Source of the DNA: Schmidtea polychroa
Lineage: Eukaryota
Length of the DNA: 64,000 nucleotides
Assembly: GCA_044892525.1 (NCBI GenBank)
Contig: CM097885.1
Span: 23,190,001-23,254,000 of the forward strand
Reading direction: 5' to 3'
Below the pieces are notes generated by a model. That model was not told the DNA's origin. It did not search any database and was given only the letters and a program-made list of their open reading frames with translations. Positions 30,960 to 61,753 of this stretch are shown piece by piece; the stretch's first letter is position 1; each line of letters starts with the position of its first letter. Position numbers and translations under genes: made by a program.

Positions 30960-33952
30960 GCACTGGCGGATTCAGACTATCTGATGGTAGCTTATTAGAC
31001 AATGACGATTCTGATGTGATGACACATGAAGGTAATTTTTGACAGTTACTAAAATTTGAGTAAACTGTGGCGATTCAAATTTTGAAAATCATTTGAAAGC
31101 ATCTAGAGCAGCGGTTCTCAAATTCTTTGAAATTTTATGCGAGGCGGTCCCTTTAAAAATTGTTAGATAGCTTGCGGACCCCTAATAATAAAAAATAAAA
31201 AAGGTATAGCAAATAAAACATATATATTGAGAAAATATTACATCGTAAAGTTAAATGACAATTTTAATGCGACGGATGCAGGCGTTTTTCCAGAACTAGA
31301 GCTTCTAGGTTTGGCTTTGTCTTGGCCAGATCAACTCGCATATCATTTGTCGCGCATAATCTATTTCTTGCTTTTGTTTTAATTGTAAGTAGTGTAGAAA
31401 AGGCCGACTCACACTCATAGGTGGTTGCAAATGGAATGAGGACTTTTAGAGCCATCTTTGCAACATCAGGATAGGACAGTGCCATTTCAATCCAAAAGTC
31501 ACTACAGCAAGTTCCACGGAAAACATGTTTTGCACCCTCATCGTTTATTAAATCAATAAGTTGTTCCTGAACTAAATTGTCGTCCGAGGGCAGGTCACTA
31601 ATGGATAATTCAAATGGGTTAGTGATAAACCGATGGTGTTTTTCAAATTCTAGCAGATCAGGAAAATAGTGAGACATTTCTTTGCTAAGAACGAATACAT
31701 GCTGTTTCATCATTTCAAGAATATCGGCATCGACTTCAAGCTCATTTTCATCAATATATGTATTCAGCTGCGGAAATGGAGCAAAATTCTTATTCTCTAA
31801 CTTTGTAATCCATAGTTCGAGCTTCATTTTGAAAGCCGTCAATTTTTCATGACAATGTAGCACTGTGATATCTTTTCCTTGCAACGCCAGATTGATATAA
31901 TTCACGGATTCAAATATGTCTACCAAAAATGACAAGGAAATAAGAAAACGGACATCGGAGAATTTTGTGTGCATGTCTGGTTTGGTATCTTTCAAAAATT
32001 GCTGAATTTCTTTATGGAGTATAAAAACCCTCTTCAAAACTTTCCCTTTGGAAAGCCACCTCACGTGTGAGTGCAACAAGAGTTTTTCAATTTCGGAATC
32101 ACTTTCTTTGCATAACTCGGAAAACAAACGAGAGTTAAGTGCATTTGATTTTATGAAATTTACATCTGTAATCACATGATTGAGAACATTTTTCAACTCG
32201 TCAGGCATGGTTTTTACCATTAAAGCTTGGCGATGAATAGTGCAGTGTGTACCAATCATGTTTGGGGATTTTTGTTTAACCAAAGTTTGAAACCCAGAAC
32301 GACAACCAAGCATTGCTGGAGCACCGTCAGTACACACGCCAATAAGATTTTCCCATTTGATATCATGCGCTTCAAAGAATCTGTCCACTTATTCAAAGAT
32401 TTTTTTTGCAGTTCTGGTATTGAGAGTTTCACAGAACAAAAATTCATCTTCCAGGTGTTTATCATACGTATATCGTACGTAGACGCAAAGTTGATATTAT
32501 ATCTTTGCAGCAAGGTAATATCAACTCTTCTCCAATATTGTGTGGTTTTTACCCCCGCGGCTATTTTCCTTGAAACCTCATAGGACGCCCTCAGACCAGC
32601 CTTAATGTTCTGCGACCAGATTCCTGTGTCATCAATCCTGGAGTTGTGCAGTCGTTCGGCTTGGCGCTTAAAGAAGTCGACATCTTTGGTCATTGAGCTG
32701 GGATGCTTCGTTTCTAAGTGTCTCTTTAACTTGCTGGGTTTAAGAGAAGATGGTGCCAGCACCTGAGAACACAAGACACACTGTGGTTTCTCTTCACCTT
32801 TCGAATTTATTACAGTAAACCCATATTGTAAATATGAAATGTCATATCTCATTTTCTTTTTGGTGGGCATCTTAAATCTAAAAAAATCGATAAAATAAAA
32901 TAAAATTATAAATTTATAAAATTATACAGTAAAAGTTAATGTTTTTTATACCACAAACTGTTTACAAGAAAATAAAATACTAAATGTGATGCGTCGTTCA
33001 CTCGGAGAAAATACAATTAAAGGCAAAGAATAAGCAGACAGGCCTGCTATATAAACCCTCGAGGTTTGACCGAGTCGAGGTGACAACGTTACAATTTAAA
33101 ACAATGACGTCACAAATTAGCATACAACCTCAACATGCATGCAAAATATTGGAGACACAAAACGCAGTTTTACTCCGTAAGGGGGCTAATGTTGAATTGA
33201 TTTTTAATAACAGAAATGATTAAATTATTTTTTGATGTTTTTTTTAAATGATTTAAAAAAATGATTTAAAAAAATAAATATGCGTTAGCTCGTAGCGGTC
33301 CCCACTTTGCGAACCGCTGATCTAGAGCGTCAGCAACATACATTAGCAATACCACACAAAATGCATTAATTGAATGCTGTGGAGAAGAAATATGTGAACA
33401 AATTTTGAGTCGTGTTAGAGAATCAAATTATTATGCTATTATGTTTGACAAAACAACTGATGCATCACATAACTCACAAATGACTACAATATTACGTTAT
33501 GTGATATCTGATGGATCAGTTCGAGAAGATTTTGTTGGATTTGTTGATCTGCATACCCAAAATTATCAAGCTGAAATTAATACATCCATTGACAATGAAC
33601 CTATTCTTGACTCCAAAATTATTGGTCAATCGGTTATAAACATGTTAGAAAAAAAGTTACACCTTTCTCTAGAAAACTGTGTCGGTGTGGGAACAGAAGG
33701 TTGTAGTGTTATGTCGTCATTGCAAAAGGAGTAGTAGTTGAAATTCAAAAAGTTGCAGTGAATGCTGTTTGGTGTCCATGTTATGATCATGGTTTATATT
33801 TAACTTTATCAAAGAGTTCAAACGTACAAGTAATAAGAAATTGTTTGGGTGTTCTTAGCGAAGTTGTTGATTTTTTCAATGCTTCTGCAAAACGAAATTT
33901 TATAATAAAGAACATGCTAAATTCACAATTTCACAGATTTCTTGGTTCATAA
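30960..33952 (+). pseudogene. Decayed hAT transposase (THAP12/ZMYM1-like) interrupted by a second hAT
   Basis: NHLKASRA|SATYISNTTQNALIECC...FDKTTDASH reads across the insertion. Confidence 0.75.
31109..33319 (-). mobile_element. hAT (Buster/Charlie-type) with frameshifted transposase 31264-32870
   Basis: TIR CAGCGGTTCKCAAA; TSD ATCTAGAG at 31101-31108 and 33320-33327; BED finger, CTDGAPAM, CESAFS. Confidence 0.95.
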
Positions 33953-35406: not shown

Positions 35407-38400
35407 TTTATGTATTAAAATAATCGTAAAAAAAAAGAAGGTTTGAAAATATAGTATTTCAATCAAAAATGAAGGTTGTTTAAAATGTGAAAATTAAGTC
35501 GCGTTTCGAGATTTTTTACAAATAATGCTATTCATTCAATAGACAATAAACAAAATGTTACGATTAATGTTATTAATGCATCAAGAAATACAACACAGAA
35601 AGTATATTTGAAGATCAAAGTTGGCTATTTCTATATAAAAAAAATAATTTTATATTCCAAAATAATTTACTTTTTGTTAATTTAAATAAATCGTGAATAT
35701 TTCTCAATAACCCTTAAATACCCTACCTATCTTAAAATATAAAACCGTTAAAAGCTATATTTCTATGTAAATATTCAAAATTCCCGTGCAAACTAATTTT
35801 ATGAAGCGCAGCTAACTTCATTCTATATTAAAATGTCATATATGATGTATTCTTAGTTTTAGGATTCGAAGAAATTAATGTGTATATTTTAATTTTTAAT
35901 GAAATAGTCAATTAGTCTTGGGCATTTAAGGGCTAATTTATAATTAAAAGTTCAATTACATTTATTTATTAAATATAAAAATGACTATTAAATATTTAAA
36001 AAAGAAATTTGTAAAAGAAATATTTAAAAATAGTAAAGATTAATCTGTTTAAAATTATTTTTGTGCTAAATGATAATATTAAATAATATAAATTTTAATC
36101 AAAATTGATTTTTAATTAAAAATTCGTTTCATACATTTTGTTTTTTAAATTTTTTTTTCGGTTTAGTTTTCATTTTATTTTACATACCATTTGTTATTTA
36201 CTTATTTTTTTGTAGCACTAAATAAATTCTTTTGTGATTTTAAATGATATATATAATAAAATTAATAATATTTTAAATTAATATTCAAATTTTTTGACTC
36301 CCAATTAAATTTTTGTAAATTAAAATCAATCGTCAACATTTCTCAATTATTAATTAAAAGTTCTAATATATTTAGTTATTTATTTTACTATAAAATATAA
36401 AATTTTTAATAGTCCTTTCACTCTTTCCAAATCATATTTGTAAAAATAATATCATGATATTCAATCTTATTCATTTCCACAAACTGCAATGTCTTTTTTA
36501 GAACATGGCTATATGTTTTGTTTTTTTAACAATTTAATTTCACTTGTCTTTATTCCAATCAAAACCCAACAAATTTCCATTGACTGAAGATAGAAAGAAA
36601 ATACATTAACAGTTGTCATCCTAATAATATCATCAAACAATATAATCCAAGAACGTTTTTATGCGGATGTATGGATTTATTTTATAAATGAAATAAAGAT
36701 AAAAAATTTTTATATTTAATAAATTTTTATCACATGTCGCATATATTTTGATTGACTGCAAACTATTAACAAATGACCCCAGTACTCATAAAAAATGCAA
36801 TGTAAACCTTTAAATCATCTAAGTTTATTTGTCATATTTTTTAAATAATGATTAACAAAGTCACCTTAACCTACATTTAAATTATCATAGATTATTCATA
36901 AAACATTCGATTCTCCTAAATAGTGTAATGCCTCCTAAAGCTAGTGATCCAAGCAATAAATTCTCAAAAATTATCCAAAATACTCTAAAAATACTCGAAT
37001 TTCGTCATTATATTCTAAATTTAATATACAAAGATCTTCAATACATCTTAGCCCATTCTATCATTTACCCTCAAATTACCCCAAAACTTAAGGTTCCTTA
37101 AAGATAATATATTTTTTTAAATAACCAAACAAATATAATAAATTATCATTAATATCAAAAACCAATAGATCATTTATATTCCAAGCTCTCTTAATTAGAA
37201 CAAATTACTCTAAATCAGCGATCTTCAAACTTCAAAAGCTCATGAACCTTTATGTGAACAAAATTTATTTATGTATTGAGGTTCTCAGAATCTTAACCTG
37301 ATGGTTCCTATATAAATAAGAACACAAACACTGGTTCAAAAAACTTTATTAAATAATAAAAATTATGTACGCAAAAATAAAATCACCTTTTATAAAAATT
37401 ATGCAATTGTTTTGTTTATTTTTCTTAGTGTGTTTTCTTTGCTATATGTCCCTACTTGCTACTACCTGTACTCGGTTATATAATTTTGTATGCTCGAAAT
37501 TATATTGTAATATCAATTACTGAATTTGGAACTCTTCTTCGTTTAAAATTTTTCGCTGATTTGACTAAGGAAAACTATGGTTTATATATATATTTTTTGT
37601 GGCTCTCCATATCAAGTAAAGAAGTATTTCAAATGTCAGTAGTGTTTGTTTTTTCATAGCCACATTTCTTTTTTTAAAAGTGCAGATCTGTAACTATTTT
37701 TAAGGTTATCTTTATTTTGGTTGGAAGCAGTATATTACCCATTATATTGTGTTTCACTTTGAAAGGTTATCAAAATAAAATTAGGCATTCTTCTGTCACC
37801 AAATATTTGTTTATGATGAAGAGCCTTTAGAAATAGGGAATTGTACAATTTTCTTTGTTTTTAATGGATAAATTACATGTTTTGAATTAAGACCCAAATG
37901 ACGACCAGCTAATACTGATGGGTCCACTCGAACTCTTCTCACCAATAATTTCGCATCAACTAATGGACATATTGGTGCACTGGTTGCACTAAAAAGAGAT
38001 AATGCAGAATCGGACCTTTTCAGTCTTAAAGTGTACATCAACTCCTGAAAGCAAATATTTCGGTTGATCCATAAAATTGAGTTGTAATGACGAGCACATG
38101 GTGAAAACCTTTGAGCCTTATTCCACTTTTTCATTCATCATCTGTTGATGCAAACCCCATAGGATTAAGACATGTATTTTTAGTATCGGAATTGTAATTT
38201 AAAATAGTTTCTATTAAAACTTTGTGAATAAATGTAATATTACCGTCCTCAACCTTGATATTATTAAATCTGAGAACTACATCTTTAAGAAGAGTATGCA
38301 GCAGGAAATTGTTCGTTATTACATCTGCATTGCCATCCAAAACCTTTCTTTCTTTATATACAACCTTGATCTGAACAGTCTATAAAGTCTCGTCCAAATC

Positions 38401-38743
38401 TAAATATTCAGTTTGCGAACAATTAATATACAACTCAATATAATTTCTACTATCAGTAATTGAATTCATAGGAAATACTTGCTCAAATGCCCCAAATACA
38501 ATTACAGCCTGGGATGATGGTCGATCAAATATACATAATTTAGATTTATCACAAATCATTTTTCAAATATAGTTCCATGTCCTTTCACTCGTTTGTTTAT
38601 AAGTGATATTCAATGTCTTTTACGCTTTGAAGCATGAGCTAGGGTTGGGGCTGGGTATGTATCTTTTTGAAACATACTTACAACCCATGGTAGAACTTTC
38701 CATAATTCAACTAGAGCATTTTATTTTAGGGAAGGTAATATTT

Positions 38744-39060
38744 TGTTGGGTATTTGTGAAAGTCGGTAACCTTGTCTGACTCCTTCGTGTCCTTTGAAAC
38801 TAAGTTAAACACCCAACACAAAATCTTTATTCGAGACTAATACAATTACACTTTTGTTACACTTTTTACTGATTCCACCACACTTGATACAACCACTTTT
38901 GCACCTTTCAATACTACTGGAAATCTTACGCAGTGATGAATCTTCCAATGGGAGATGTCCCTTTCTGGTACCCTAAATTATTCAATTGACACTAACTTCA
39001 AAGTTTTCTTTGTTACTCTCACTAAATTTCTCATTTCCTTTTCTTCGAACAACTGGCGGC
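38744..39060 (-). mobile_element. Truncated LTR-like insertion in the core gene
   Basis: Starts TGTTGGG and shares CTGACTCC..CGTGTC..AAATCTTTATT with the solo LTR at 45455. Confidence 0.5.
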
Positions 39061-39754
39061 TCATAATCACGTATTTAGCAGTTTTCATACCAAAACTACC
39101 CATACGTTTAAGAATAGGAAGTGCAAATCTCCCAATTGCTCGCAACCATCCTATCCGTACCGTTTATCAATAAAATATGGTAATTCACTGCCGGATTGGC
39201 TACCACTATACATACTAATAATATCAGAATTAGCAATTTACTTTACGAAAATGTAATGTCAAATGAGTTTTTGAATCTTTAAGTAATTTTAAGTAATTTT
39301 CCAGAATCATCTCTTATATTTATTTCTATATTGTTTACATAAGATGTTGAAACAGGCAAATACATGGAATTTCCTACATTTGTACAACTTCGTCTTGTTC
39401 ATGTTTTTCAATTCATATTGATTTCAATAAAGGAACACTAGAATCACCAACAATGACGGGGTCAATGACATTACTGTAAATGAACATTTGTTGATGAAGT
39501 TTAATTATTTTCGGAAATAAAGTACCTTCATTAATTTTACCATCTTTAACATACATATTTTTGGGTAATCCCAAAGTAGTTTTCAAGTTATTATCAAAAT
39601 GGACACTTGAGAGTGTCTTTAATTTTAAATTTAAATTTTTTATTTTTCGCAAGCTCAACCGATTCGAAAATCATTGCACAATTTTCGATAAATAAGTTTT
39701 TAATTTCATTATATATTTCATTATCTATTTCAGTTACATATAAATCTTCTTTAA

Positions 39755-40050
39755 CCACTTGCGCTATATTGACATGCCAGGCACGTCTTGATGATTTTTT
39801 TCAGAACTGCAAGTGATGTGTATACCACGTCGATAGTATTTGTCGCAAAAACAAAAACGACGTGTTTGCAACGTTGTTGTTGTGAATAATTATTTATATT
39901 CGTGTAAATCTTTTATGTAAGACCCTACCCTCGCGCTAAGCACTGGTCAAACCTCTGAGCTCGCTGACGCGGTGAGGCGTCGATGCCTTACGATACTTTA
40001 TATAGTAGAGCGCGGCTCAGCTACCGAAAATTAAATCATAGCGCAAGTTG
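39755..40050. mobile_element. piggyBac-type MITE, copy 1
   Basis: TIR CCACTTGCGCTAT (one mismatch), TTAA TSD, near-identical to 49848-50143. Confidence 0.92.
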
Positions 40051-40555
40051 TTAAATGTATGAGTAAAGGTTTCGTCATTATAACCCGTTATTATCATCTG
40101 AATTTTTTCTTTTTTCTCCGTTTCGAATGCAAGAAGTCATATTATAGATTTATTAGTATTGATTTTGTTATATAAATTTGAGAAACCAAATCTTTTGCTT
40201 TTTCAATTGACTCAAGTGTAATGCTGAATGATGCACACTTTGAGGTGGCATGTGATGCATAATCATAATGACTGATTTCATTGGAATTATAATCCATTTG
40301 AGTTACTGAAAAATATTTTTTCTTTGTTATGGATGAAAATTATTTTATTTTCTTTAATCAGTTCCATCTTTGTGTATGTGATTGTAGATTTACTGTAAAA
40401 TGGAAAGAGTTTATACACAAAAGTGTAATCCAACAAATCAACTTCCCAGTCACTATCTAAATAAATTGGATTGAAGATCAATTATGAATTTGCTGGCTTG
40501 ATTGTTTGTGTGAATTAATGGACAACTATTACTCGGTAAGATAGTATAGAAATTC

Positions 40556-43500
40556 CCCATTTCTTTGTATTGATGCTTGGTAATCAGAAATCTAGCTAAG
40601 AACGGTATGCAATCAATAATCAATTTCCATGACCAACCAGATATAACATATATTTGGTGGGTAGTTAGTATTTGAGATTATTACTTTCGTCATCACTATC
40701 ATAACATAAATTCCAATCAATCCTGCACACGCTTGTCCTAAAAACATAAATTTTCCCCATATCTTTTTCATCGTATTATACGTTGCCTTTTTATAATGAT
40801 CTGGTGTTAATAGATAGTCATAGTTTACTTTTCCTTCGCCTCCTGGTAGTAGTATCAATCATATCAGTTATTACTCGTTCCTTTTTCGACGGAAATAACA
40901 AATTCATTCTGGCTTCCTCAACATCTTCAGAATATAATCCGGTTTGTGCTAATTTATCCAATGATGTGAAATTTATTAAATACTCAAGTTTCGTTAATTC
41001 AAGCTTTTCTGGAGTTTTTACTCCCTTGTGATCTGATAATGATATCCATGAATCTGATGTTAATCGATATAATGGTGCGAGTAATCTGTTTCATTTTAAA
41101 GCCTTTGGTTTTACGTCTTCTTCTAACAATATCCGAGTTATTGGTTCCATAAATCTGAGTTTACCATTAACACTAACTGGTAATTCATTTGTGCATTGTT
41201 CGTATTTTATAATTTGTACTGAAATTTCATTGCATTTATAGTTATACAACGCTTCATCAAATATCCTTGCAAATACACCGTTTTCCGATATTAACATAGG
41301 TGCTACCAAATTCGGATTTTTGACCGCCATGGCCATTTTATTTCGTAATATTTCTTTGTTTAATTTACAATCGTTTAATATCATTTCTCGATAAATATTT
41401 TCCACAATGCTTTGACTGTAATGGAATAGATAATCTATTTTGTTATTGAAATAATTTGTCAATTTAATATCTGTACTATGTATTTTAATTTGAGCTTCCT
41501 CGACTCTTTTCTTGGACACATAAATTCTTTTATAATTCGTCTCATACACCGTTTGCCCACACTTATCCACTACTCGTTTTCGTATAAATCTCATTCCATC
41601 GTTCAATAAAGTTGACATCAGAACTACTGGAGTTTTTCTCTTTCTCAATTGCGAAATTTTAACTGTCATATCCGACTTTGCTTCTACGTTCAAACTTTCC
41701 GGTCTATCTCTCAACTGTTCGCCACTCATTTCATTGAAACTCATTGATTTCAAATGAATCAAATTACATAAATTTGTCTTTACTTCATATACCAAAATCG
41801 ATTCTGCTGTCTGACAACTGGTCTGTTTCATATTACATAATGGATGAGTTTGTAGTTTACCTGTATCATCGTTAAAAGCTCCTTTAAATTCTCTCAATTC
41901 TGTTAAATATTCTTCCATCACAACAACTCTATCAATAATTTGACCATTCATTTTATATGGTTCGCCTTCACAATCATCATTGGCCTTTATCGTCCCCTTT
42001 CCGATAATCGTTTCTCGTATTGCATGATTCAATTTAGCCTTCAATTTAATTTCGGGGCTTATTTTCAGTTCTCCGGTCTGGAATGCAGCCATGTAATTTT
42101 CTGGGTTTACATCAACTGGCCTCGGTATTGCATACATTTTAATTAATGATGTGTGACTCCATTTGCCAGAATAAAAGATAAAACTTGTTCTTTTCACAAT
42201 ACATTCTCTTACCGTGGCATGTCTGAATCCAAACTCTTGGTATACATAATATTTTACGTCATTTTCCACTATCAAACTCAGTGGATGTACATCTAGACAT
42301 TCTGTAATGTCTACCATAGAAAATATCTTTCCCATTTTTGTTTGAGAAAAGTCGTATGCGATCAGAGACGTCGTTTGAGTTGTAATTGCACATAATATTA
42401 TAATCATGAACATTAAGAATGGAAATTTAATGGTTTTTCGTTTCAAGGCTCCTTTAAGGTTTTCTCTCATTTCGACAGCTGGTTTCATTTTTTGTTTAAT
42501 CAGCTTTTCCCAACCTCCATTTTCTTTAATCCATTTGCCAACATACTTATGTAAAACTCTACTTGCCGTTTTAATTATTTCCCCTGGTTTTTCCATATCT
42601 GAGCAATCATATGTGCCGATCTCTAACAAAATATAACTCATAATTGTTAATACCATATCTTTATCCATTTCTCCTGTCATCATCTCAGTTATCACACTAT
42701 CATCGCAAAATTCCATACTTTCTTTTACTTGTTTCAACACTACACAAAATCTCTTTTCAATTTTCTTTGCGATTTTTCTTACATATTTCTCTACTTGTAA
42801 TTTCTCTGTTGATACACCATATAATTCATTTACTAGAGCACGTACAACTTTCTCAGTTTCCTTTGAGTTTTTCTGATTTCTTTCTTCTTGAAATCTTTGT
42901 ATTATTTTACATCTCATTTCATACAAATTTCTACATTGTTTTTCTTTAATTTCATTGTCTATCGTCATTTCTGTCATATATGGCTCATTTTTAAATTCAG
43001 TTTTTATCTCATTTTTAACAATAATCTCCTCAGCTTCATTTTCTATTTCATCTTTTTCAGTCTTCATCTCATTATTAACAATAATCTCTTCAGTTTTATA
43101 TTCTATTAAATTTCTTCGCATTTCTTGTTCATCGTGCATCTCATCATCATTACTCATTATCGCAGTTTTCCAATTTGTTAATTCCATTTTAAAGCTTCCT
43201 TCTACTTCCTTTAATTCAAATTGTTTCATCGCAACTAATTCATTAATAAACAATTCCTGATTCGTCAAAGATCCATTTTCATCAAATTTTCGTGGTACGC
43301 AGCCACAATCAAATAAATACTCATCATCGTCTAACTAAAAACCTTTATACGTATATACAATTATTCCATTTCTGCTGCTCTCCGTCGTATTTTACTCACT
43401 TTCCTACAACAATGCTCTTTGGTACATTTCACTTCTTGATCATTTATTTTTAAAATTATTATGAATGGCTCAATATGAACTCCTTTTTCTCTAAATTCTT

Positions 43501-44170
43501 TTCCAAATTTATGAATAAGCGTTTTTATCATTTCACTATATTTATTATCACAATTCACATAGGGTCTGATATAATCTAAAATTTTTAATTTATCTTTCAC
43601 TTCAAATTCTAAATTAAAAATATCATTTAATTTATCAATAATATCACCTGTATATCCCTTGATCAATGCTTCATTTAATTCAAATTTAATTTTATCGACA
43701 TATTTGACTGGTTTTTAGTTGGCAATCATGCTCATTATTTGTATCTCATTTTCAACACCGTGGATCAATCCACCATCTACCAAAAATTCGTCGTCTTCCA
43801 ACACCCGATTCATAAATCTAAGTTCTACTGCCCAAACTTCACATTTGTGCATTATTTCTCTTTTTAACTCGTTTACCTTTTCATATGCTTCAATTTGATA
43901 CTCGGATTTGGTGCCGCCTGATACATTTGTTTTAATAAATATTGGGTCTAACCATTTGATTTTTCGTAGAGTTTGGCCAAATTCTTTCATATAATTTTCA
44001 AATACATCTCGCTTTTCCACACTTGCTGCATAACATTCCGTACAAAGTCTAATAACAGTTTTAATGTTTGTTAAACTCAACGGTATTTCCGTTAGCTTCA
44101 TTAACACTTCTGTCAATTTCTGAGAGTTTGCGTCAGGTTCTGTTACTAATTTACAATTTATGGATGTTAC
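40556..44170 (-). pseudogene. Polyprotein remnant: repeat domains, Bcl-2-like domain, chuvirus-type glycoprotein
   Basis: KWIKENGGWEKL; signal-like FLMFMIIILCA followed by LIAYDF...EC...RECIVKR...GKWSHTS; GLYS...LLFP; TM WGKFMFLGQACAGLIGIY. Confidence 0.8.
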
Positions 44171-44179
44171 CTTTGTGGA

Positions 44180-44765
44180 AAACGTCAGAGTGAAACTGCT
44201 GCATTGAGTGGCCATCCCAAAGGAATTATTAACTACTTTCTGAGGAAGTATCCGCCAGGAGCAGACACATGTCAACAAGCAACGTTCAGGCCGCTCCAAA
44301 CTTCTGAGCATCCGTACCAACGGCAGCTGAAACGACTTATGATGATTCATCGTTGGTTTTCCCTGTTCAAGTTAGTTTCCACATTTAACATTGGGCCTGT
44401 GCATGTCAGCATGTCTACCATTCGTCACGCATTACATTTTCATGGTTTCTATGGCAGAGACTGCGCAAGTGTAGGAGAACGATTTCACCCTTACTGCATT
44501 CAGTCAATTTTGAAATATGGAGGAGGCTCCATCATGTTTTGGAGTCTTTTCTCATCTTGTGGAACTCGCCCTCTCGTGAAGTGCAGCAATCACATGATGT
44601 CAGTGGAATACCGTGCCATTCTGGAAAATGAGCTTGTTCCCTTTCTCCCAGAAATTGATGGGCTCATTTTCCAACAAGATAATGCATCAATCCATACTTC
44701 ACACATTATGAAGGAATTCTTCTGCAGCACAGCATCAACGTTTTGGATTGGGTTCCACAAATCCC
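44180..44765 (+). pseudogene. Tc1-family transposase fragment
   Basis: KYGGGSIMFW and IFQQDNASIHTS. Confidence 0.88.
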
Positions 44766-44769
44766 TGAT

Positions 44770-45121
44770 AGTAGATGGTAGTGGCACCGCAAAACCTTGG
44801 GCCCGCAAGACCACATACGCCCTCTCCCCCGTGGAAAGAAATTTTTTTTAATTAAAATTTTTTAGAACAAATACAATGACTCATCCGATGAGTCATCAAA
44901 TTATTATTATTATTCAAAATATTATTAGTGGTCTTGCGGGCCCATGGTTTTGGTCATGCAACAAGTTAGTGTTCCCATCATCCGATTATATGAACCGATA
45001 GCTTATTTTAAAGCCCAGTGCAAGATCTATCTACTGATATATAAATATTATTATCACTATTATTTTATACACGGGGTTTTATAGTGGAGCCCTTGGTTTT
45101 GCTGTGCCACTACCATCTACT
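44770..45121. mobile_element. 352-bp miniature element with Polinton-type termini
   Basis: 27-bp TIR AGTAGATGGTAGTGGCACMGCAAAACC; internal motifs shared with the element A TIR; no TSD seen. Confidence 0.75.
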
Positions 45122-45454
45122 CTACTGTTTTTTCTCTTTTATGTCTCTTTTCACAGGTATGATCGAGATTTAGGTGTAACCATACATCGGCAGAATTTAA
45201 TTCTCTACAAAATGGCGCAATTACAATTTCAGTTTGTTGCTTTATGTGTAATACACACGTTTTTACAATAAATTTGTATTTTTTCGCTCGGTTATCGTTA
45301 TTTTCTTAGATTTTTATTCACATAATATATAGATAAAATTTAATTTTCTATAAAATAGCTTGATTAAAAATACACACATGTTTTCTTGATTTTTTTTTAA
45401 TATTAATAATATTTTTTTAAATATTAATAATAGTAATAATAATAATTATAATAT

Positions 45455-46449
45455 TGTTGGGTTATAGTGTTGGTGATAAAATTTAATGTTACTCTGACTC
45501 CAAGCGTGTCTTTATATAATTCACAAATAACACTTGACAACAGAAATCTTTATTGATAATCACAAATAAACTTTCACTTGACACTGACGATAAATTCAAC
45601 ACTCTACTTGGTGACTATACAATGCTTATTACAACACTCGGTGAGGAATAGCACTTGTGTATAACACCGGATTAAAAGATCACAATCACTGATTGGTTTC
45701 TAAACTGGGATTTTGAGCTGGTTGTTTTTTTTGACTTTCGTTCAAACTTTATTCAAATAATCAATAACTTCTTTTCGTTTTATTATTCAGCTAATTCTTC
45801 TCTTCAACTCTTCTCCAATAATTATTTTCCACAATTATTTCCTTTACAATTATTTTGACAATCGTTTATTCAACAAAGTTTCGTCCAACGTCTAATTTTC
45901 TTTGATAATTCTATTTCTCAAATCGTCTCTCAAATCGTTTCTCAAATCGTCTTCCAAATCGTCTCTCAAATCGTTTCTCCCTTTGTTCTAATTTCACGTT
46001 CACCGGTTTTCCTTTATATAGTTCGCTTCTCTTGTGGCACTCCAGATACTCAAGTGTTTTTCCACTTTCTATCTCCTGCTTTCCCCGACTGTCCCATTTT
46101 TATCTCTGACAGCTGTCAAGTTGTTTTGCCCTTTTTCCTTTCTTGTTTGGCTGCCTTCTCCCATCAATTCTATTATCACTCGCAAGCTGTCGAGATAAGG
46201 ATATTGTTGTTTTCCTTTTTCCCTGATTTCAAAATTCCATTTCCTTTTTGTACTAATTAATTAGTACTGACCTTGATTTCTATTTTCTCGTTTGATAAAT
46301 TTTATTTCCTTTCTCTTTCTCATTTTTGATTTCTTTTCACTTCCGTTTTCTTTTCTGAGTCTCTATAGATCGTCCCGTTTGTCATGGCGATCTTCCCCCA
46401 GGTAATTTTATTTATTTCTTTATGAATTATTATTTAGGTATACTCAACA
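45455..46449 (-). mobile_element. Solo LTR (Gypsy-like)
   Basis: TGTTG...CAACA ends, 4-bp TSD ATAT, TATA and AATAAA on the minus strand. Confidence 0.78.
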
Positions 46450-48110: not shown

Positions 48111-49847
48111 AAAAAAAACCTAAAATATTGTTTACACACACAACCCATTAACCATTATTATTATTTATTATCAATATTATTATTATTAATATTAGTGAAA
48201 ACCTAAAATATTTTTTACACACACACACAACCCATTAAACTTTATTATTATTATTATTATTATTATTATTTCAAATATTAGTCAAAAACCTAAAATATTT
48301 TTACATACATAAATTATAGGGTAGAGAATTATTATATGTTTGCACTAATTAATTAAATATGAAATTTATGAAAAATCAGTTTTATGTGTTTGCTTTCACA
48401 AAAAATTGTCAATAACTAGCGATAATTTACAATTTTGCATACATTCTATATGCACATACCTTGTTTAACATGGGTGTATATTCTTAATATATGATTATTA
48501 TTATATAGTCAGAGTTTATCCGGCAAGATATTTTGTCCCCCTATGGGTATTGGTCACCAGGATACTACTCACATTCAACATGTCGCAAGGGTATATTAAT
48601 TAAGGTTAATAAATAAAACTTATCACACATACTATTTTTAATAATATTTTAACGATAAAAATCATGACAAAAGAGGACAAGGCAACGTTTATGCATTTAA
48701 TATTGCCAGGCCAAATGAGCAGTACCTGAAAGACACGGTGGATATTTGTTCGCGTCCACAAGGGTCATCTGTGCCACCCCCAGTGGAGTCAGAAGAACCT
48801 GGGCATCATAGTTTTCCGTACGGAACATTACGTCTAGCCTGTCTGGGTAGTCAACTACCAGCACATTCGAAACGTATTAAAATACATTACAAAATACATG
48901 CGTCATTGGCACTATAACCAAATTAATTAATGTTTTCACAACAACAACAATATATATTTACAGAGGCCTCCCACTAGTTGGATTACAACCGCCCACCACG
49001 ATGATCAGCTTCTAAATACATAGTAATTAAGGGATAAAGAGGACCCACCCAACCCTATTATATTTAATTTACAAAGGGTTTTTCACTCTTCTGGATTTAG
49101 TCTGTAATCTATCACAAAATTAATCTCTCCGCCGGGCCATTTGATCGTGATTTCATGGAATACATCTTGCAAATTGGACGTATTTCTTTGCTTAGTGACT
49201 CTGATTCGGTGTCAACTCTCATTGCTAAAATTTGTATTGATTTAAAACAATGCAATTAACTTACGTTATCTAACATTTTATCGTCAGATGCTTGATAAAT
49301 TAAATTCTGCCTGACTAAATCCAATAGCCTGTCTGATTATTTGTGGTATACTTTTTCAATATTATTTCTTATCAATTCCCACCGTAAACATTACTATATT
49401 AACAATAAGGAATTAATTCAAGTCTTACATTAATATTCGACATTACATTAATAATAATCTTTCATATTATTCATGTATGACGAGTACTTTACAATATCTA
49501 ATTGCTAAAACATGGGTTTTTCCCATTTTTCTTGACATTCGTTGAAAGAAAGTTTACATACTTTAAGTCTGATAAGTAAACATTCATGTTGAAGGACACC
49601 CACAATCAGCTAATTTATTTAAGAAATCTCTAAATCCAGAATTATAAAACATAACTCCTTTAGTGTTTCACCATTTTGTCTGGTTCATCTTCATAATCCA
49701 ATAATTCAGGTTTTAGTAAGAAATCTCTATAACACATAATAATATGGATACTAAAACGAAAGAAATAAAGTTATATCAGAAGTATATTTAAATAATTTAA
49801 ATTTAGTTATTTAAACATATTTAAACAATTTAAATTTAGTTATTTAA

Positions 49848-50143
49848 CCACTTGCGCTATATTGACGTGCCAGGCACGTCTTGATGATTTTTTTAAGAAC
49901 TGCAAGTGACGTGCATACCAAGTCGATAGTATTTGTCGCAAAAACAAAAACGACGTGTTTGCAACATTGCTGTTGTGAATAATTATTTATATTCGTGTAA
50001 ATCTTTTATGTAAGACCCTACCCTCGCGCTAAGCACTGGTCAAACCTCTGAGCTCGCTGACGCGGTGAGGCGTCGATGCCTTACGATACTTTATATAGTA
50101 GAGCGCGGCTCAGCTACCGAAAATTAAATCATAGCGCAAGTGG
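49848..50143. mobile_element. piggyBac-type MITE, copy 2
   Basis: Perfect 13-bp TIR, TTAA TSD. Confidence 0.93.
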
Positions 50144-53100
50144 TTAAACATTAATATTATTATATAGTATAATTTTATATAATATTATAAATTTTATGTA
50201 TTCTAAATTTAATAATACTTCATTTAATTTTTTAAATTCAAAAATTTATAAAGAACATTCTTTGAATTAAAAAATATTCTGTTAGTATTTCCATGCAGAA
50301 AACAACGAATTCAATAATTAAAAACTTAATTTTCATGTTATATATTTTGGGTTGTAGCCAGAAGTTAATCGTCATCTAATCGTTTGTTCAGTTATCACCC
50401 TGTTCTAATTTCGCTCATTTTTGTTCAAAACATTCAGGTGAGTTGTTATCTGGAAAGTTTCAGTTTCTTTTAGCTCAGTTTTGTTAAAAAACTCACGGCT
50501 TTTTTGAGGGACGTGACACTGGAAATCCATACATGTTGTTGGTCTGAGCTGTCGATTTACTTTAGAAATATGTATATTAAAAACATTTTAGGTATCATTC
50601 AGTAAAATAATATAGTATTTTTGAGTATTTTTTAGTTAATTTATAAATAACAGTATTTTGATGTATCAATAAAGACCATATAGTCTGATTTTATCCGACA
50701 AGATATTCTGTCCCTTTATGGGTAATGGTCACCAAGGTACTGGTCGCATTCAACATGTCGCAAGGGTATATTAATTATTAATCAGTTAGAAATTCTTAGG
50801 TAATTTAGTGAGATGATCAGAAATTCGTGAATATTTTAAATGTAACTTACCGAATTCTTATTTATTGCGAGCGACTTGTTTATTGGTTAACGTTTAAGAC
50901 ATTTAAAGCCAAATGTAATTTATTCTTCTAATGTTCGTTACTATAGTTAATAATATGAGAAAAACATGGTCATTGATAATTTTAAGTTCTTTATCATTTG
51001 GAGTAAATTTGTTTGAGGCAAAAATAATTAAAGGAGTCAGTCATAATATGTTTATCAATTTACCAATTAAGGTGCTTATTAGTTAGAAATATATACCAAA
51101 AAGTAACAATTCTTTCCTAATTTAATGAGATGATTATTGGACGTAATATATCTTTGTGACAAATACATAGGTTAAGATGTTTGAGTAACCAAAACATGGA
51201 TATTTTGTGCGATAAATTTATGAATATTGGTTAATCTTGTCATTTTTAGTCATTTAAAATAATATTTAGCAAAGGTAATTTAGCAAAATATCATTGAAAG
51301 ATTTATCCACCCGATAACAATATTCCTTCAATAGATTTTACCCTTAACTGATATTCAACCGATTTAATTTCTGGAAATATAATTAAAATCATAAATTAAC
51401 TTCAATAAAGTTAAATTTTCTTTAGTTGTTGTCGATGTCCAACTCTTTTAAGTCCTCATAATGAATGTCCATCTTTACCATGTTAAATAAAGATAAAATA
51501 ATTTAAAGCAATAACCTTTGATATCAATCGCAATTATCTCTAAAGATTTCAAATATTTCATTGTCAAAACCAAGTAAATTAGTCATTAACCCTAAACCAT
51601 TTAATAAAATCCTGGATAATTAATAGACTATTTCCATTGAAACATTTCCATCCTAACCGATCCTTCACCAAATATTTCTACCCCTTAAACATCCAACCGG
51701 TTATTTCCCCCTTAAATACTATATATTACCAACTTAACCGAACCCTCACTATATCCAACCGACTATATCTCTTAATTTCACCCACTTGAGCCCTTTAATA
51801 TATCTTAAAATCTATAGAAAATTCTTCAAAATATGAATTTTATTTAATTGTTACAAACATTTTTCCATTGAAATTGAAGCTAAATTCATGATCAAAAAAA
51901 TGATCAAAATTCATTAAAATCAATATTTTCTACAAATATTTAACCACATGTATCATCAAATACCTAACTAGAGATGATAATATCTCATTGATTGATCATA
52001 ATTCTTCATCGATTCAGCAAATTTTAGCAATTATAACATGATATATCTTTCAAACTAAATCACAAATTTCAGTATATTTTACAATAATTTTCAAGTAGAT
52101 TTCAAATATATGATCATCATGATAAAATTAACTGGTTTCAACTTTAGATTTTCAATATTTTAAAGTTCATCAATGTGTAAATATTCTTAGAAAATATATG
52201 AAAAAATTATTTAGTCAAATTCAATATCATTACAAAGTCATCATCATCATCAAAATTTATCCTATCACTTGATTATTGTAAAAAACTCTAATTATTAACC
52301 TTGTAATGTACAGTTATTTTTGTTAATATTTTAGTATTCACAATTAGGAATTGTGTATACTAAGATATAAAATACAACCATCTGGGAAATCCAGATTTTT
52401 AATAAAAAACTATATAGCGATAATTTACTATAGTAAATTATCGCTATAGTAAATTAAAAAATTAAAAAAAGTCAATAAAGAAATCAAATAAAATTTAGAA
52501 CAAACAGGAACTAAGACAAGAATAAGAAAACAAATTTAGAAGAAATTGGAAAGAATATTATTAAACCAATTCCTTTAAAACGGAAAAAAGAATATTAGAA
52601 GACTAGAACAAAACAAGGATCAGAGTAGTGAGGAATCTATGCACCCCAGCACCCCCACCCTCAAAAAAAAACAGCGCTATTGACCCATATTTTCCACATT
52701 TATATGCTTTTTTACCCCATATTCTTCACTTTTTTTAACTTTTAAACTTTGTCCCCTATTGCCATTAACCCTTAATTTCTTCCCTTAAAAGTAAAAAAGT
52801 TCGGAATAGATGTATTTATAGATTAGTAATTCCGAGAAAAGGTAACGGGGTGCATAGATTCCTCACTACTTGGTCTTAAGGATTTAATGTTATAAGAATA
52901 TCAGATTACCTAATTCATAATGATCTAGGTCGCCTGATCACCTTAAGGTTTTGAAAGTTTTAAAAATAAAAAATTTTATGAAAATAGTAAAACTGCTCTG
53001 AGGGGACAGTGGTATTTTTTTTTTTTTTTTTTCACTGTCCCCTCAACAGTTTTTTCTGATCCGGATCATTTTTTTTTTTTATTTATCAACCTCTTTCGTT

Positions 53101-54343: not shown

Positions 54344-54398
54344 TTCATAATATATTTAATTAATCCTATTGTGTGTGTGTAAATTTTAATATATAAAA

Positions 54399-55691
54399 AT
54401 GAATAACATAAATCTTAAAATTCAAGAAAAAAATAAATTAAATCTTGATTATAATAAAGAATTTACTCATGAAATCAAGAAAAACGATGTACTTAAAATC
54501 TCCCCAACTTCAGGATCTATTGCAAACTTAAATCGTAGGGGTGATATAGTTTTTCAATCTCTTCAAACATCAAACCCTATAGATATTTGTAATGCCAAAT
54601 TATATTATAAAATCGAATTAGAAATTGAAGCAAACAAAGATATAACCCTAGAAAATAATTTCTTTCCAAATTTATTCTCCAACATGAGATTAAAACTAGG
54701 ATCATCAGAAATTGAAACTGTTTTGCATCCGGGAGTATATTCTACAATGTTAAATTTTATTTTGACTGGTTGTGATTATAAAAACGAATATGGTGAATTA
54801 ACAGGTTGGATTCCTGATGTTAATAAAGGGGATTTAGATAAAGATGGTTTAGATGTAAACCATGGTTACCATAAAAGAGCTGAACTTTATAAATCTAAAA
54901 AATTTGAAGGTTATTTTGAATTAAAACACTTGTTTGGATTCCTTCAAAACTATAATCGTATACTTCATAATGTTTTTATAGAATTCATCTGTAATAGAGT
55001 AGAAGGTGATAAAAGATTGTTCTATGGAGCTGTAGATACAAAAGCTAAATTAAAATTATCAACACTTGAATTACATATACCTGAATGGACATTAAACCCA
55101 CATTCTGAGATTAAACTCCTTGAAAGATTAAATTCCAACAAGTCTATAAATGTAAATTATTTAAATAGAATCTGTAGTGAATTTAGTATGACAGAGGGTT
55201 CAACATATTCTATAAAGGTAGCAAATTTAGCATACCGACCAAGATATATCTTGATTGGATTCAAAGAAACAGATTCATCTTTCCAAAAAAATAACAATCT
55301 ATTTATTCAAAAGATTGGAGATGATAATTTAAAAACAATACAAATTCAATTAAATAGTTCTTATTATCCAATAAATAGAATGGAATTTAATATTGAAAAT
55401 AATGAAAACATATTCCCATATCTAAATTATATTGAAACATGTTATGATTTCAAAGTTGAACCGCAATTAAGTTTAGAAGATTTCAAAAATTTATATTCTA
55501 TATTTTGTATAAATGTATCAGACCAAGATGATCGATTAGCCATAAATAATGTTGATGTTACACTTCATGTAACAAAGGATTCTAATTTTAAAGCTAAAGT
55601 ATATACATTAATATTAGAAGAAAAGAAAATAGAAATGAAATTATATGGTGGAAAGATTTCAATAATCGAAAATGTTAAGGGAGATTCTTAA
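54399..55691 (+). CDS. Major capsid protein (double jelly-roll)
   Basis: LENNFFPNLFS..LKLG..EIE..PG, PRYILIGF, IQLNSSYYP. Confidence 0.85.
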   Translation: MNNINLKIQEKNKLNLDYNKEFTHEIKKNDVLKISPTSGSIANLNRRGDIVFQSLQTSNPIDICNAKLYYKIELEIEANKDITLENNFFPNLFSNMRLKLGSSEIETVLHPGVYSTMLNFILTGCDYKNEYGELTGWIPDVNKGDLDKDGLDVNHGYHKRAELYKSKKFEGYFELKHLFGFLQNYNRILHNVFIEFICNRVEGDKRLFYGAVDTKAKLKLSTLELHIPEWTLNPHSEIKLLERLNSNKSINVNYLNRICSEFSMTEGSTYSIKVANLAYRPRYILIGFKETDSSFQKNNNLFIQKIGDDNLKTIQIQLNSSYYPINRMEFNIENNENIFPYLNYIETCYDFKVEPQLSLEDFKNLYSIFCINVSDQDDRLAINNVDVTLHVTKDSNFKAKVYTLILEEKKIEMKLYGGKISIIENVKGDS

Positions 55692-55708
55692 TATTTTAAC
55701 ATTTTAAA

Positions 55709-57118
55709 ATGTCTTTAAATAAATATTGGATATGTGAAACTTGTAATTGTCAAGTTACAAGACATCATAAAGCAAGCCATCTTAAAACTAAAAAACATAC
55801 AGTAGGTGACCTAATTCCACGAGCTGGAGGCGATTTGCAATCTTCAAAAACAACATCTTCAATATTAAAACCTTTTACTACAGAAAAATATCCAGGTGAA
55901 AGACATTTATTTAAACACAACTATACTGGACCAGGAACACGTCTAGATATTAGATTAGATGAAAATAATAATCCCAAACAAGGAGAAGAACCAATAAATA
56001 GAATTGATCAAGCAGCTTTAAAACATGACATTGCATACAATTCAACAAATCTTAGAGATAGACATGTTGCAGATGTGAATTTAATACATGATTTAAATAG
56101 TATCCAAAATCCATCAACCCAAGAAAAGATTCAAAGAGCTCTAGTTAAATTAGCAATGAAAGGTAAGATTTTCATAGGCTTAGGACACAGTCCGATCACC
56201 ATGGGTGCAAGACTTCCTAGGAAAGCAAAAGATGTTGCTTATAAAAAGATTATCGAACAAGCAGAGATTGAAAGATCCCTCGAGAGTACAGCCAAGACTA
56301 GTCTACAAACCCCAACAGAATCAGAAATAAAATATGCAAAGGAATTACACCATGAATTTAGAAAAAATAAAAAATATTTAAAAGTTCAAGTACATGAAAA
56401 AGATCAAACATGGTCTGCAGATTTAGTCTTTATGCCCAAATCATCAGACCCTGAAAAATATAAAATAATTTTAACTGTAATAGATTTATATACAAGATTT
56501 GCTTTTGCAAGATGTTTAGAAAATAAAACAGGATATTCTATTACAGAAGCATTTGAAAATATATTTGAAGATAATCAAAGAATCCCAAAATATTTATGGT
56601 GTGATAAAGGAACAGAATTTTATAACAAAGTTTTTACAAAGTTTTTAAATGAAAATGATATTAAATTATATTCAACAGAAAACGAAGGAAAAGCAGTCGT
56701 AGTTGAAAGATTAAATAGAACATTAAAAAATAAAATGTGGAAATATTTTACTGCTATTGGAAAACAAAAATGGAACAATGAATTGTTACAAAAGATTGTA
56801 AATGAATATAATAATGATGTACATAGTTCTATAAAATCAACACCTTTAAATGCTTCCATGAAGCCTGAAACCATTAAAGTGGTAAATATTGAAAATGATG
56901 TTATTGAAAAACCAAAGTTTAAAATTGGTGACCGAGTAAGAATATTTAAATATAAAAATAAATTTGAAAAAGGATTCACAGCAAAATGGACAAATGAAAT
57001 TTTTATTATAAATAAAATACATTATACAACTCCAATAACATATAGCATCTTTGATTTAAATAATGAAAAAATATTAGGTAGATTTTATAATAATGAACTA
57101 CAGAAAACAGATTTTTAA
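55709..57118 (+). CDS. C2H2 zinc finger + parvovirus-type PLA2 + retroviral-type integrase fusion
   Basis: CETC..HLKTKKH; HNYTGPG...IDQAALKHDIAY; SADL, CDKGTEF, VERLNRTLK. Confidence 0.92.
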   Translation: MSLNKYWICETCNCQVTRHHKASHLKTKKHTVGDLIPRAGGDLQSSKTTSSILKPFTTEKYPGERHLFKHNYTGPGTRLDIRLDENNNPKQGEEPINRIDQAALKHDIAYNSTNLRDRHVADVNLIHDLNSIQNPSTQEKIQRALVKLAMKGKIFIGLGHSPITMGARLPRKAKDVAYKKIIEQAEIERSLESTAKTSLQTPTESEIKYAKELHHEFRKNKKYLKVQVHEKDQTWSADLVFMPKSSDPEKYKIILTVIDLYTRFAFARCLENKTGYSITEAFENIFEDNQRIPKYLWCDKGTEFYNKVFTKFLNENDIKLYSTENEGKAVVVERLNRTLKNKMWKYFTAIGKQKWNNELLQKIVNEYNNDVHSSIKSTPLNASMKPETIKVVNIENDVIEKPKFKIGDRVRIFKYKNKFEKGFTAKWTNEIFIINKIHYTTPITYSIFDLNNEKILGRFYNNELQKTDF

Positions 57119-57129
57119 GTCGACAAGCC

Positions 57130-57921
57130 CTAAAACAAACTTTTCCATATTTCAGCTTCTTCTCTATCCAAATAAATATAATTATATTTTTCTTTCCAAT
57201 GATTATCAACAAACATATCAAACATATTCTTATCAGGTTCAACATTTGAAAATAAATCATTATAAATCATATTCTTATCACGGCGATCTAATTTAAAAAA
57301 TATAAAACAATTGGAATTATTTCTTATTGAATTTTTATCTAAAGCATAATATGTTTGAGATATATAAATAACATTACAATTATTATGTCGACCTCGTGTA
57401 AAGTAACTCTTTTGAATCTCTTGATTTTTCATATTAACAACATCATCAAATATAACTAGATTCTTTTTATCTTTAGGAAGTAAATCACAATGTAAAACAT
57501 CTTCAGGTTTATTAGAGAATAAAACTTGAATTGCCTCCTGCCCTTCTTCACAAATATAATCATTTTTATTACTAATATCTGATTCTAAAATCTTTTCCTT
57601 ATACCAATCAACCATATCACAAGGTTGAAAAACTTCTTCAGGACACCTATGTTGATTTTTAAAAATATCAATTATTGCTTTTTTAGTTAATTTATTTTCA
57701 AATCCACATTTCAAAAGTTGTAATTCTGGTTGATTTATGGTTGTAGAATAAAAGATTAAATTATTATAATCTAAAAAATCATCTTCAAGTAACATTCTCA
57801 AAACAAGTACATTCTTTCCACATCCAGAAGAACCAACAATTAATAATCTAAAATTATCAGGAAATACTTTATTATTAAATTTACTCTTATGTCTATTTAA
57901 AATTGGTTTCCAAATATCCAT
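57130..57921 (-). CDS. A32/FtsK-like packaging ATPase
   Basis: GSSGCGKN, VIFDD, RGRH, ISQ; likely ATG at 57921. Confidence 0.92.
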   Translation of the reverse strand: MDIWKPILNRHKSKFNNKVFPDNFRLLIVGSSGCGKNVLVLRMLLEDDFLDYNNLIFYSTTINQPELQLLKCGFENKLTKKAIIDIFKNQHRCPEEVFQPCDMVDWYKEKILESDISNKNDYICEEGQEAIQVLFSNKPEDVLHCDLLPKDKKNLVIFDDVVNMKNQEIQKSYFTRGRHNNCNVIYISQTYYALDKNSIRNNSNCFIFFKLDRRDKNMIYNDLFSNVEPDKNMFDMFVDNHWKEKYNYIYLDREEAEIWKSLF

Positions 57922-57936
57922 TTTGTTTATTATAAA

Positions 57937-58506
57937 ATGACAACTGAAGAATCTTTGCAAGAATTAATAAATTCAAATAAAAATAAATCAGTAGTAATTG
58001 ATGGTAAAAAATATTTTATTGGAAAACATGTAAAAGAACAAGTTAGAGCGAAGATTAAAGAAGGTGGAATTCTTCCATTAGCTGCTTTAATACCTGCAAT
58101 CATTGCTGGTTTATCAGGTGCTGCTGGAATAGCTGGAGGAATTGCAACTACAGTTCAAAAAGCTAAAGAATCTCAAAAGACAGACCTAGAAAAAGAAAAA
58201 CTACAAACTGAAATCGATTCAATGAAGAAGGTAGGGCAAGCTAAAGGGGGAGTGTCCGTTGGAAAGGGTCTCTATCTTAATCCATATGAGGGGAGTCGGC
58301 AAAAGTCTCAGGGCAAAGGTCTCTATCTTGATCCTTATAAAGGTAGAGGTTTAAATGATTTTTTAAAAAATCAAATTTCTACATCTGAATCTTTATCTTC
58401 AAAAGATAAAGAAGATTTAAAAAAAATATGTAAATCTTTAAAGAATGGATGCCTTTGTAAAACTAAAAATGGTAAAGGATTATACTTGAAGCCCTTCGAA
58501 CTATGA
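57937..58506 (+). CDS. pX-like core precursor with GKGLYLxP repeats
   Basis: GGILPLAALIPAIIAG; three GKGLYLxP(Y/F) repeats. Confidence 0.75.
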   Translation: MTTEESLQELINSNKNKSVVIDGKKYFIGKHVKEQVRAKIKEGGILPLAALIPAIIAGLSGAAGIAGGIATTVQKAKESQKTDLEKEKLQTEIDSMKKVGQAKGGVSVGKGLYLNPYEGSRQKSQGKGLYLDPYKGRGLNDFLKNQISTSESLSSKDKEDLKKICKSLKNGCLCKTKNGKGLYLKPFEL

Positions 58507-58528
58507 TACCATTTTTGATACCATTAAA

Positions 58529-59410: not shown

Positions 59411-59432
59411 ATACGAAGTTTTAAAATACAAA

Positions 59433-59897
59433 ATGACTCCTTCAATATTAGATTTTTTAAAAACATTTGGAATAAATGCAAAAACAAATTTTGATTTAAA
59501 AGATTATGCAAATTATTTAAATTTAAAAATTAAAATATTAATGAATGATGAATTATCAAGTCTGGAGAGTCCCCTGAATATAATAATCAATTATCAAAAT
59601 TCAAATGAAAAAGGATCTCATTGGGTTTGTATATATAAGAAATCTATCTACTTTGATTCTTTTGGGATTAAACCTACTAAAGAAGTTGAAGATTATCTCT
59701 TGAGGGGTTCTCCGATTGATTCCCCAAATGGTTATACTTTTAACTCTTTACAAGTTCAACCTTTGAATACTAAAATATGTGGTATTTTAAGTTTATATGT
59801 TTTGTATAGATTGAATAAGGGAGAGGGAAAGGGGCATACGCAGGATTTTGAATCTATAATTCAAGAAATTTATAATGATCTAGAATCTCTACTATAA
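59433..59897 (+). CDS. Adenain-like cysteine protease
   Basis: GSHWV, YFDSFG, QVQ...ICG. Confidence 0.9.
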   Translation: MTPSILDFLKTFGINAKTNFDLKDYANYLNLKIKILMNDELSSLESPLNIIINYQNSNEKGSHWVCIYKKSIYFDSFGIKPTKEVEDYLLRGSPIDSPNGYTFNSLQVQPLNTKICGILSLYVLYRLNKGEGKGHTQDFESIIQEIYNDLESLL

Positions 59898-59945
59898 GGA
59901 TTTTTACTATAAGGATTTTTACTATATGAATTTACTACTAAAGAA

Positions 59946-60710: not shown

Positions 60711-60734
60711 AGATTCATTTTAAATTATTAATAA

Positions 60735-61745: not shown

Positions 61746-61753
61746 TTATTAAA

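Follow-up and report, generated by a model that had tools for sequence, protein, structure and literature searches.

Among planarian LTR retroelements, the giant gypsy-like elements Burro and GYPSM1 encode a polyprotein in which a Gag with three CCHC knuckles, a ubiquitin/SUMO-like domain, a BCL2 domain, an env with mononegavirus fusion glycoprotein matches and PR-RT-RH-IN follow one another (Arkhipova and Yushenova, 2019, PMC6431247), a dUTPase-like domain having been found with HHpred between PR and RT (PMC6431247). More recently, a survey published in eLife in 2026 has described, in its available part, flatworm GAG-ENV-POL elements with a gB-type ENV, including Smed_errantivirus_1, in a main text that contains neither 'Bcl' nor 'Burro' nor 'accessory' (PMC13524379). 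In mosquitoes, the BEL/Pao elements named Anakin carry a chuvirus glycoprotein as env, according to the available part of the report (Dezordi, 2020, PMC7642597).

Here we describe a window of 64,000 nucleotides of Schmidtea polychroa (the whole stretch of DNA that was analysed), in which a stretch on the minus strand is very probably a dead piece of a compact Burro-like LTR retroelement encoding, in one frame, Gag, two ubiquitin-like domains, a Bcl-2 fold, a glycoprotein, protease, RT, RNase H and integrase, in a protein likely to cross the ER membrane four times. Its family shares with Burro an env that lies in frame between gag and pol, behind ubiquitin-like and BCL2 domains. However, Burro is giant (over 30 kb) and contains MATH, ankyrin and BIR domains, whereas the family of the window copy (family 1) spans 14.7-20.5 kb without such Pfam matches and has two ubiquitin-like motifs, unlike the description of Burro. 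Because of this size and of the missing MATH, ankyrin and BIR matches, it is, judged by its sequence, a compact relative and not Burro1 itself; the link to Burro, made in a preliminary description of this DNA, agrees with the published order (PMC6431247). Compact forms may be in print already as Burro-2, -3 and -4 (Grohme, 2018). Regarding the survey, the available part gives Smed_errantivirus_1 the same GAG-ENV-POL order, intervals of ~15 kb and a multi-copy state (PMC13524379); counted by eye, 39 of the first 50 residues of its ectodomain match the window, and Smed_errantivirus_2 and _3 resemble families 2 and 3 by eye. Anakin, as far as described in the available part, is likewise an LTR element with a chuvirus-type G as env, of the BEL/Pao and not the Ty3/gypsy type. 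To our knowledge, a Bcl-2 domain is not known in Anakin.

With the placing of Bcl-2 ahead of env and the gag-env-pol layout both in print, the fusion is not new; the window copy alone, being dead, adds little. What is added is that the order is independent of giant size and common to three compact families, that purifying selection appears to act on both the Bcl-2 domain and G, that the Bcl-2 fold holds with a degenerate BH1, and that two papers which never use each other's terms are joined.

The fragment in the window and its parent element

The minus strand between 40553 and 44152 reads as one 747-aa ORF and four shorter pieces (Table 1), with a DNA identity of 92% to four fuller copies over 3623 columns. 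In tblastn, the pieces are matched one after the other by P0001, which is unbroken and comes from the same genome (residues 489-751, 755-1595, 1596-1655 and the tail), the first three at 85-98% identity. The preliminary description had joined four ORFs through stops and frameshifts into more than 1100 aa; this P0001 alignment confirms a single parent frame of ~1,200 codons, interrupted by three in-frame stops (codons 43717, 43337 and 41093) instead of the two given at 43715 and 41091, and by three frameshifts (near 43367, 40851 and 40678). The succession of linker, helical WIKENGGW domain, hydrophobic segment, glycoprotein and TM had been correctly recognized, with the pieces in the parent frame. 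The two LxDDE(F/Y)LxDxG motifs are present as well; they form no repeat of their own and sit inside two ubiquitin-like domains. Pol and the 3' LTR are absent, and the LTR pair, the polypurine tract and the target duplication are lost. The window copy is dead and doubly truncated and cannot make the polyprotein. It had been proposed to be a retroelement tail; it is an internal fragment, pol coming after the glycoprotein in fuller copies.

Table 1. Features of the locus and of related copies (window positions unless a copy is named).
Feature	Position	Strand	Basis or remark
Decayed Polinton capsid-gene block, neighbour, outside the element	37720..40554	-	77-85% DNA identity to window 7263-9466; tblastn
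MITE, TTAA-flanked, inside the Polinton block	39747-40055		
Junction with the Polinton remnant	40553..40555	.	3-base overlap common to both sides
Decayed internal polyprotein-gene fragment, compact Burro-like Ty3/gypsy LTR element	40553..44152	-	parent residues ~489-1700
Glycoprotein transmembrane anchor	40676..40750	-	hydropathy in fuller copies; sequence
Ectodomain, Monjiviricetes/chuvirus-type fusion glycoprotein PF24664; one stop and one frameshift	40760..42365	-	Pfam
Internal signal-like hydrophobic segment, directly ahead of the glycoprotein AYD start	42366..42430	-	hydropathy
Bcl-2-fold domain; BH2-like WIKENGGW at 42510-42533; BH1 degenerate	42480..42887	-	profile, model, Foldseek, VIA
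Acidic linker	42935..43235	-	sequence
Ubiquitin-like domain 2 (likely), second LxDDE motif, cut by frameshift and stop	43265..43480	-	inferred: motif and spacing as domain 1
Ubiquitin-like domain 1, first LxDDE motif inside, without C-terminal diglycine	43730..43950	-	PF00240
Tc1/mariner transposase fragment, neighbour, in the place of gag	44150..44851	+	DDE_3 0.04, HTH_Tnp_Tc3_2 0.11, weak
LTR of the same family, same orientation as the fragment	45454..46449	-	91-92% identity to LTRs of copy L067/L069
Post-integrase signal/luminal/TM block	L068:8090-9265, L072:8960-10000, L113:1-816, L129:3470-4975	+	
Copies of the G-less derivative	L056:6851-L057:8051; L062-L066; L081/L082; L083/L084		

The first ubiquitin-like domain matches PF00240 with an E-value of 0.061 in the window and 2.5e-5 in copy L071, with weak Rad23/ubiquilin matches (best E 0.024). 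The second is likely of the same kind, its motif and spacing being identical in kind to those of the first; PF00240 gave no match to it in family 1 and reaches only E 0.074 in family 2. The acidic linker has 24% identity to that of family 2.

A genome search with the Bcl-2 region (150 matches scored of 1231 candidates) returned groups at ~80% and 35% identity, with open frames of up to 3334 aa. Fuller copies encode in a single frame a retrotransposon Gag, three CCHC knuckles, ubiquitin-like and Bcl-2 domains, PF24664, protease, RT, RNase H and integrase, and this one-frame order is found in L071 (2828 aa), L044/45 (3334 aa), L048/49 (3217 aa), L111 and L115, with PR-RT-RH-IN behind gag as in Ty3/gypsy; Pfam gave no dUTPase match between PR and RT at E 0.05. 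The LTRs measure 0.9-1.1 kb (~0.9-1.0 kb in family 1) and have TG..CA ends, pairs are 99.6-100% identical, a polypurine tract is present, and a clear 4-base target duplication was seen in three of the seven elements inspected. None of the family-1 copies examined is unbroken from gag through the last TM. A retroelement origin and a single polyprotein, as first proposed, are supported by these copies, which are flanked by gag, pol and LTRs. Full-length copies do contain the Bcl-2/G fusion, as the preliminary description had required, but another form is commoner in this subfamily.

A third compact family was found with a Pfam Bcl-2 search, and a giant family was reached via a BIR search: it has a Bcl-2-like/G/pol polyprotein core, MATH and ankyrin domains and separate TRAF and IAP genes, and it coexists with the compact one in the same genome. 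A grouping of the four families is suggested by an RT-RH tree of 22 rows, in which they come together (89/90 support, below the tool's star level) with no more than four other gypsy rows for comparison. Outside this genome, six public proteins (P0003, P0005, P0010, P0013, P0014 and P0015) have the same BH2-signal-glycoprotein junction. P0012, one of seven representative matches, was dropped as a repeat-protein false match, P0016 corresponds to a free Bcl-2 protein, and the fragment P0011 does not extend far enough for the junction to be seen; among proteins of 1555-4949 aa, none of 257 candidates was a homologue of the Bcl-2 region.

The giant Burro-type family, at L127-L130 and L139-L142, has multi-kilobase LTRs, MATH and ankyrin domains, a TRAF-like gene and an IAP (BIR-RING, 392 aa); most of the 150 scored BIR matches of the genome are, judged by length, of the type of this IAP ORF. 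An accessory ORF with a DEDDh exonuclease match lies behind the polyprotein at L069:1422-2960 (+), L051:7082-7990 (-) and L113:677-2842 (+), RNase_T giving E 2e-6 to 3e-5 in family 1, and family 3 being alike by eye only.

The glycoprotein and the Bcl-2-fold domain

A chuvirus/Monjiviricetes type of glycoprotein, in line with the chuvirus type proposed from the start, is supported: PF24664 matches three window pieces (2.7e-45 for the 747-aa ORF, 1.5e-7 and 1.3e-7) and fuller copies at 1e-80 to 1e-94, with bit scores of 155 in the window and 272-315 in fuller copies for a cut-off of 27, and with profile positions 4-637 of 653 matched in family 3. A profile of G reached a best E of 0.94 against solved structures, and its presumed class III (gB-like) fusogen nature is taken by analogy from the available part of the survey, for close relatives (PMC13524379). 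The G ectodomain has a single N-glycosylation sequon in 531 residues.

The hydrophobic segment preceding G ends right ahead of the AYD motif in each of the 12 element sequences listed, 44-78 residues past BH2; the N-terminal signal of P0009, a free-standing relative, occupies the corresponding position, and the PF24664 profile starts on the segment in family 3. For these reasons, it most likely represents the signal peptide of the glycoprotein itself. It had been suggested to serve both as Bcl-2 anchor and as signal peptide; the latter role fits the signal site of P0009, which weakens a tail anchor by origin, although the segment would act as an anchor after cleavage.

Regarding the domain ahead of it, PF00452 matches the WIKENGGW region of the window weakly (E 0.017, under the Pfam cut-off), and a profile of 15 copies from three families matches Bcl-xL with an E-value of 7.9e-5, the 60 rows shown all belonging to the Bcl-2 family. 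The structural model is modest (pLDDT 60, pTM 0.48). The rows listed by Foldseek are all of the Bcl-2 family (best E 0.011, TM 0.48-0.61), and in VIA ranks 1-34 are all Bcl-2 folds, the best at Z 11.7 (for helical folds the tool advises caution below 13), with an rmsd of 3.5 Å over 134 aligned residues and the first unrelated chain at Z 5.0. The helical Bcl-2 fold predicted in the preliminary description is thus supported by profile, Foldseek and VIA alike. The BH2 tryptophan/GGW is kept in all families. The BH1 motif NWGR of canonical pro-survival members is not intact, being replaced in the window by MDKDMV in an alignment to Bcl-xL; in Bcl-xL, the binding of BH3 depends on this glycine and this arginine. 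Simple Nei-Gojobori pairs, with family 2 near saturation, gave dN/dS values of 0.16-0.32 for the Bcl-2 domain and 0.05-0.16 for G, indicative of purifying selection on both, and Bcl-2 domains of different families are 16-36% identical in pairwise comparisons.

As to its function, there is a moderate probability that the Bcl-2 domain dampens a host death or immune pathway from the cytosolic face, through a surface that would be non-canonical since the BH1 motif is degenerate. A classical tail-anchored pro-survival protein, which would be cut free of Gag, go to mitochondria or ER and bind the BH3 of host Bak/Bax-like proteins so as to keep the producing cell alive, appears rather unlikely. The closest folds are indeed pro-survival proteins with BH3 peptides (Bfl-1, A179L, Mcl-1), the conserved BH2 would suit such a protein, a giant relative carries an IAP gene too, and the domain is under selection even in a derivative lacking G. 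However, the loss of NWGR, an anchor that is by position the glycoprotein's signal, and the low identity between the domains of the families argue against it. Clearly less probable still is a structural spacer, which would connect capsid to membrane in the manner of a matrix protein and have no role in host control. The place of the domain, behind Gag/Ubl and ahead of the first membrane segment, is constant across the four families and the six outside proteins, and its fast divergence and degenerate BH1 would suit a spacer, but its distance to the glycoprotein start varies (44-78 residues) and the accessory domains and genes carried by this lineage (ubiquitin-like, MATH/TRAF, IAP, ankyrin) point to host signalling.

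The genome also contains, at L091-L097 (G000:C4:89.95-90.83 Mb), a cluster of seven near-identical canonical Bcl-2-family genes in which NWGR is intact.

Junctions and neighbouring elements

The decayed Polinton block beside the fragment is, judged by its motifs, putatively penton- and hexon-like. The fragment adjoins a Polinton ORF at codon 24 of its stop-to-stop frame, right behind the likely start (tblastn), as had been described; the name 'penton' follows from the motif, this ORF having no library match of that name. With a 351-base query across the junction at 40553, the only one of 40 scored matches (of 2568 candidates) to span it is the window itself; the others cover one side only and end in the 3-base overlap. 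Public contigs matching the window are short, and none of those listed bridges the junction. The fragment was joined to the Polinton remnant by a one-off rearrangement. It had also been envisaged that the adjacent Polinton carries the Bcl-2-glycoprotein gene as cargo, which is highly improbable: although the gene adjoins a Polinton ORF at its start and Polintons of the same genome do carry a Bcl-2-like gene, all scored matches but the window stop at the junction, fuller copies, flanked by gag, pol and LTRs, run on into protease-RT-integrase, and the Polinton's own Bcl-2 gene is a different sequence, barely related to the retroelement domain.

On the other side, the LTR at 45454-46449 is probably a solo LTR because of ATAT on both flanks and of the lack of a primer-binding site behind it; on the same grounds, its reading as the 5' LTR of the window copy was rejected. 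The MITE of the Polinton block has a second copy (39747-40055 and 49840-50148; 309 bases, 97% identical, terminal inverted repeats, TTAA flanks); with TTAA flanks and inverted ends of its own, the pair was rejected as an LTR pair.

Several other elements share the window. Positions 556-17815 hold a near-complete Polinton with terminal inverted repeats, a TBP-like gene (4478-4942), an A32 ATPase, an integrase with chromodomain, a protease, a long polymerase-like ORF and a RING gene. This first Polinton has its own Bcl-2-like gene (2104-2630, plus strand), with two likely exons, a C-terminal hydrophobic tail and, here, a stop in the first exon; outside the window, Polinton genes of this kind were noted at L119:4790-5330 and L118:4870-5330, and a second Polinton type has a version with a single exon. 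In the window, a second Polinton type lies at 54390-63008, with a double jelly-roll capsid, an integrase with a phospholipase A2-like domain and an ATPase on the opposite strand. Adintoviruses carry Bcl2 homologues as well, according to the available part of their description (PMC8502044). Remnants of hAT-type transposases and a two-piece protein kinase ORF occupy 18617-20545 (+), 31264-32921 (-) and 22452-23584 (-).

A likely second membrane protein and a derivative lacking the glycoprotein

Along the polyprotein, the hydrophobic segments come in the order signal 1, TM 1 (end of G), signal 2 after the integrase and TM 2 near the C-terminus; all four are found in families 1-3, and the giant family has three plus a signal-like segment below threshold. 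In all four families, the integrase (and, in the giant family, the ankyrin repeats) is followed by another signal-like segment, by 200-380 residues of a putative luminal domain and by a TM, which likely constitute a second membrane protein. The sequence of this luminal domain differs from family to family, with seven sequons in 322 residues in family 1. A homologue search found none among 1393 candidates, the versions of three families have no match in Pfam, and a poor model (pLDDT 44) led to nothing usable in fold searches (best Z 4.5). A likeness of the family-3 domain to fibronectin III, seen by eye, was without tool support.

Among the best 30 Bcl-2 matches, G follows in eight (window included) and the second luminal domain in 21, one match having neither. 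The group of 21 represents a derivative, 8.8-10.3 kb in length, in which the Bcl-2 signal is joined directly to a diverged second luminal domain, G and pol being gone; P0002 (1406 aa) has this gag-Ubl-Bcl2-signal-second domain-TM organization. The derivative junction occurs in at least 42 copies among 150 scored matches, at 75% identity or more. Compared to a full element, the 5' part is 95-97% identical and the 3' part 65%, and the LTRs of four inspected copies are 99.6-100% identical. For the second domain, dN/dS is 0.36-0.86, mostly near 0.5. On sequence grounds, the derivative is non-autonomous. TR-GAG elements are non-autonomous LTR elements of plants which likewise keep LTRs and Gag without pol; in the derivative, ubiquitin-like and Bcl-2 domains are retained in addition, as is a signal-anchored membrane protein. 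The description of Burro mentions no second membrane protein (PMC6431247), and the available part of the survey mentions neither a membrane protein behind the integrase nor a derivative without G (PMC13524379). An indirect search of the literature met no description of either, which does not establish their absence from print.

In working copies, the segment behind the Bcl-2 domain would act as an internal signal that directs the glycoprotein into the lumen of the ER; after cleavage by signal peptidase, it would remain in the membrane and anchor Gag-Ubl-Bcl-2 at the cytosolic side. The glycoprotein TM would then bring the chain back to the cytosol, where Pol would ride on the Env tail until freed by the protease, and the second signal past the integrase would start a second type I membrane protein. 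Capsid, fusogen and enzymes would thus, as products of a single threaded polyprotein, be found on one membrane in equal amounts for budding.

We tentatively propose, although with less than even confidence, that flatworm gag-env-pol elements are two-envelope-protein viruses with a flavivirus-like polyprotein, made of an anchored Gag-Ubl-Bcl-2, a gB-like fusogen with Pol on its tail and a fast-evolving second surface protein past the integrase, for attachment or receptor blocking. They would be accompanied by a 9-10 kb parasite (at least 42 copies, LTRs up to 100% identical) in which the Bcl-2 signal is rerouted into the second protein and which would spread on the fusogen and enzymes of its helper. 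If true, the second membrane protein and the G-less derivative would amount to a natural deletion experiment, revealing the parts (Gag, Ubl, Bcl-2 and the second membrane protein) that a selfish copy keeps in cis, and this parts list would bear on the question of whether invertebrate env-carrying elements move between cells.
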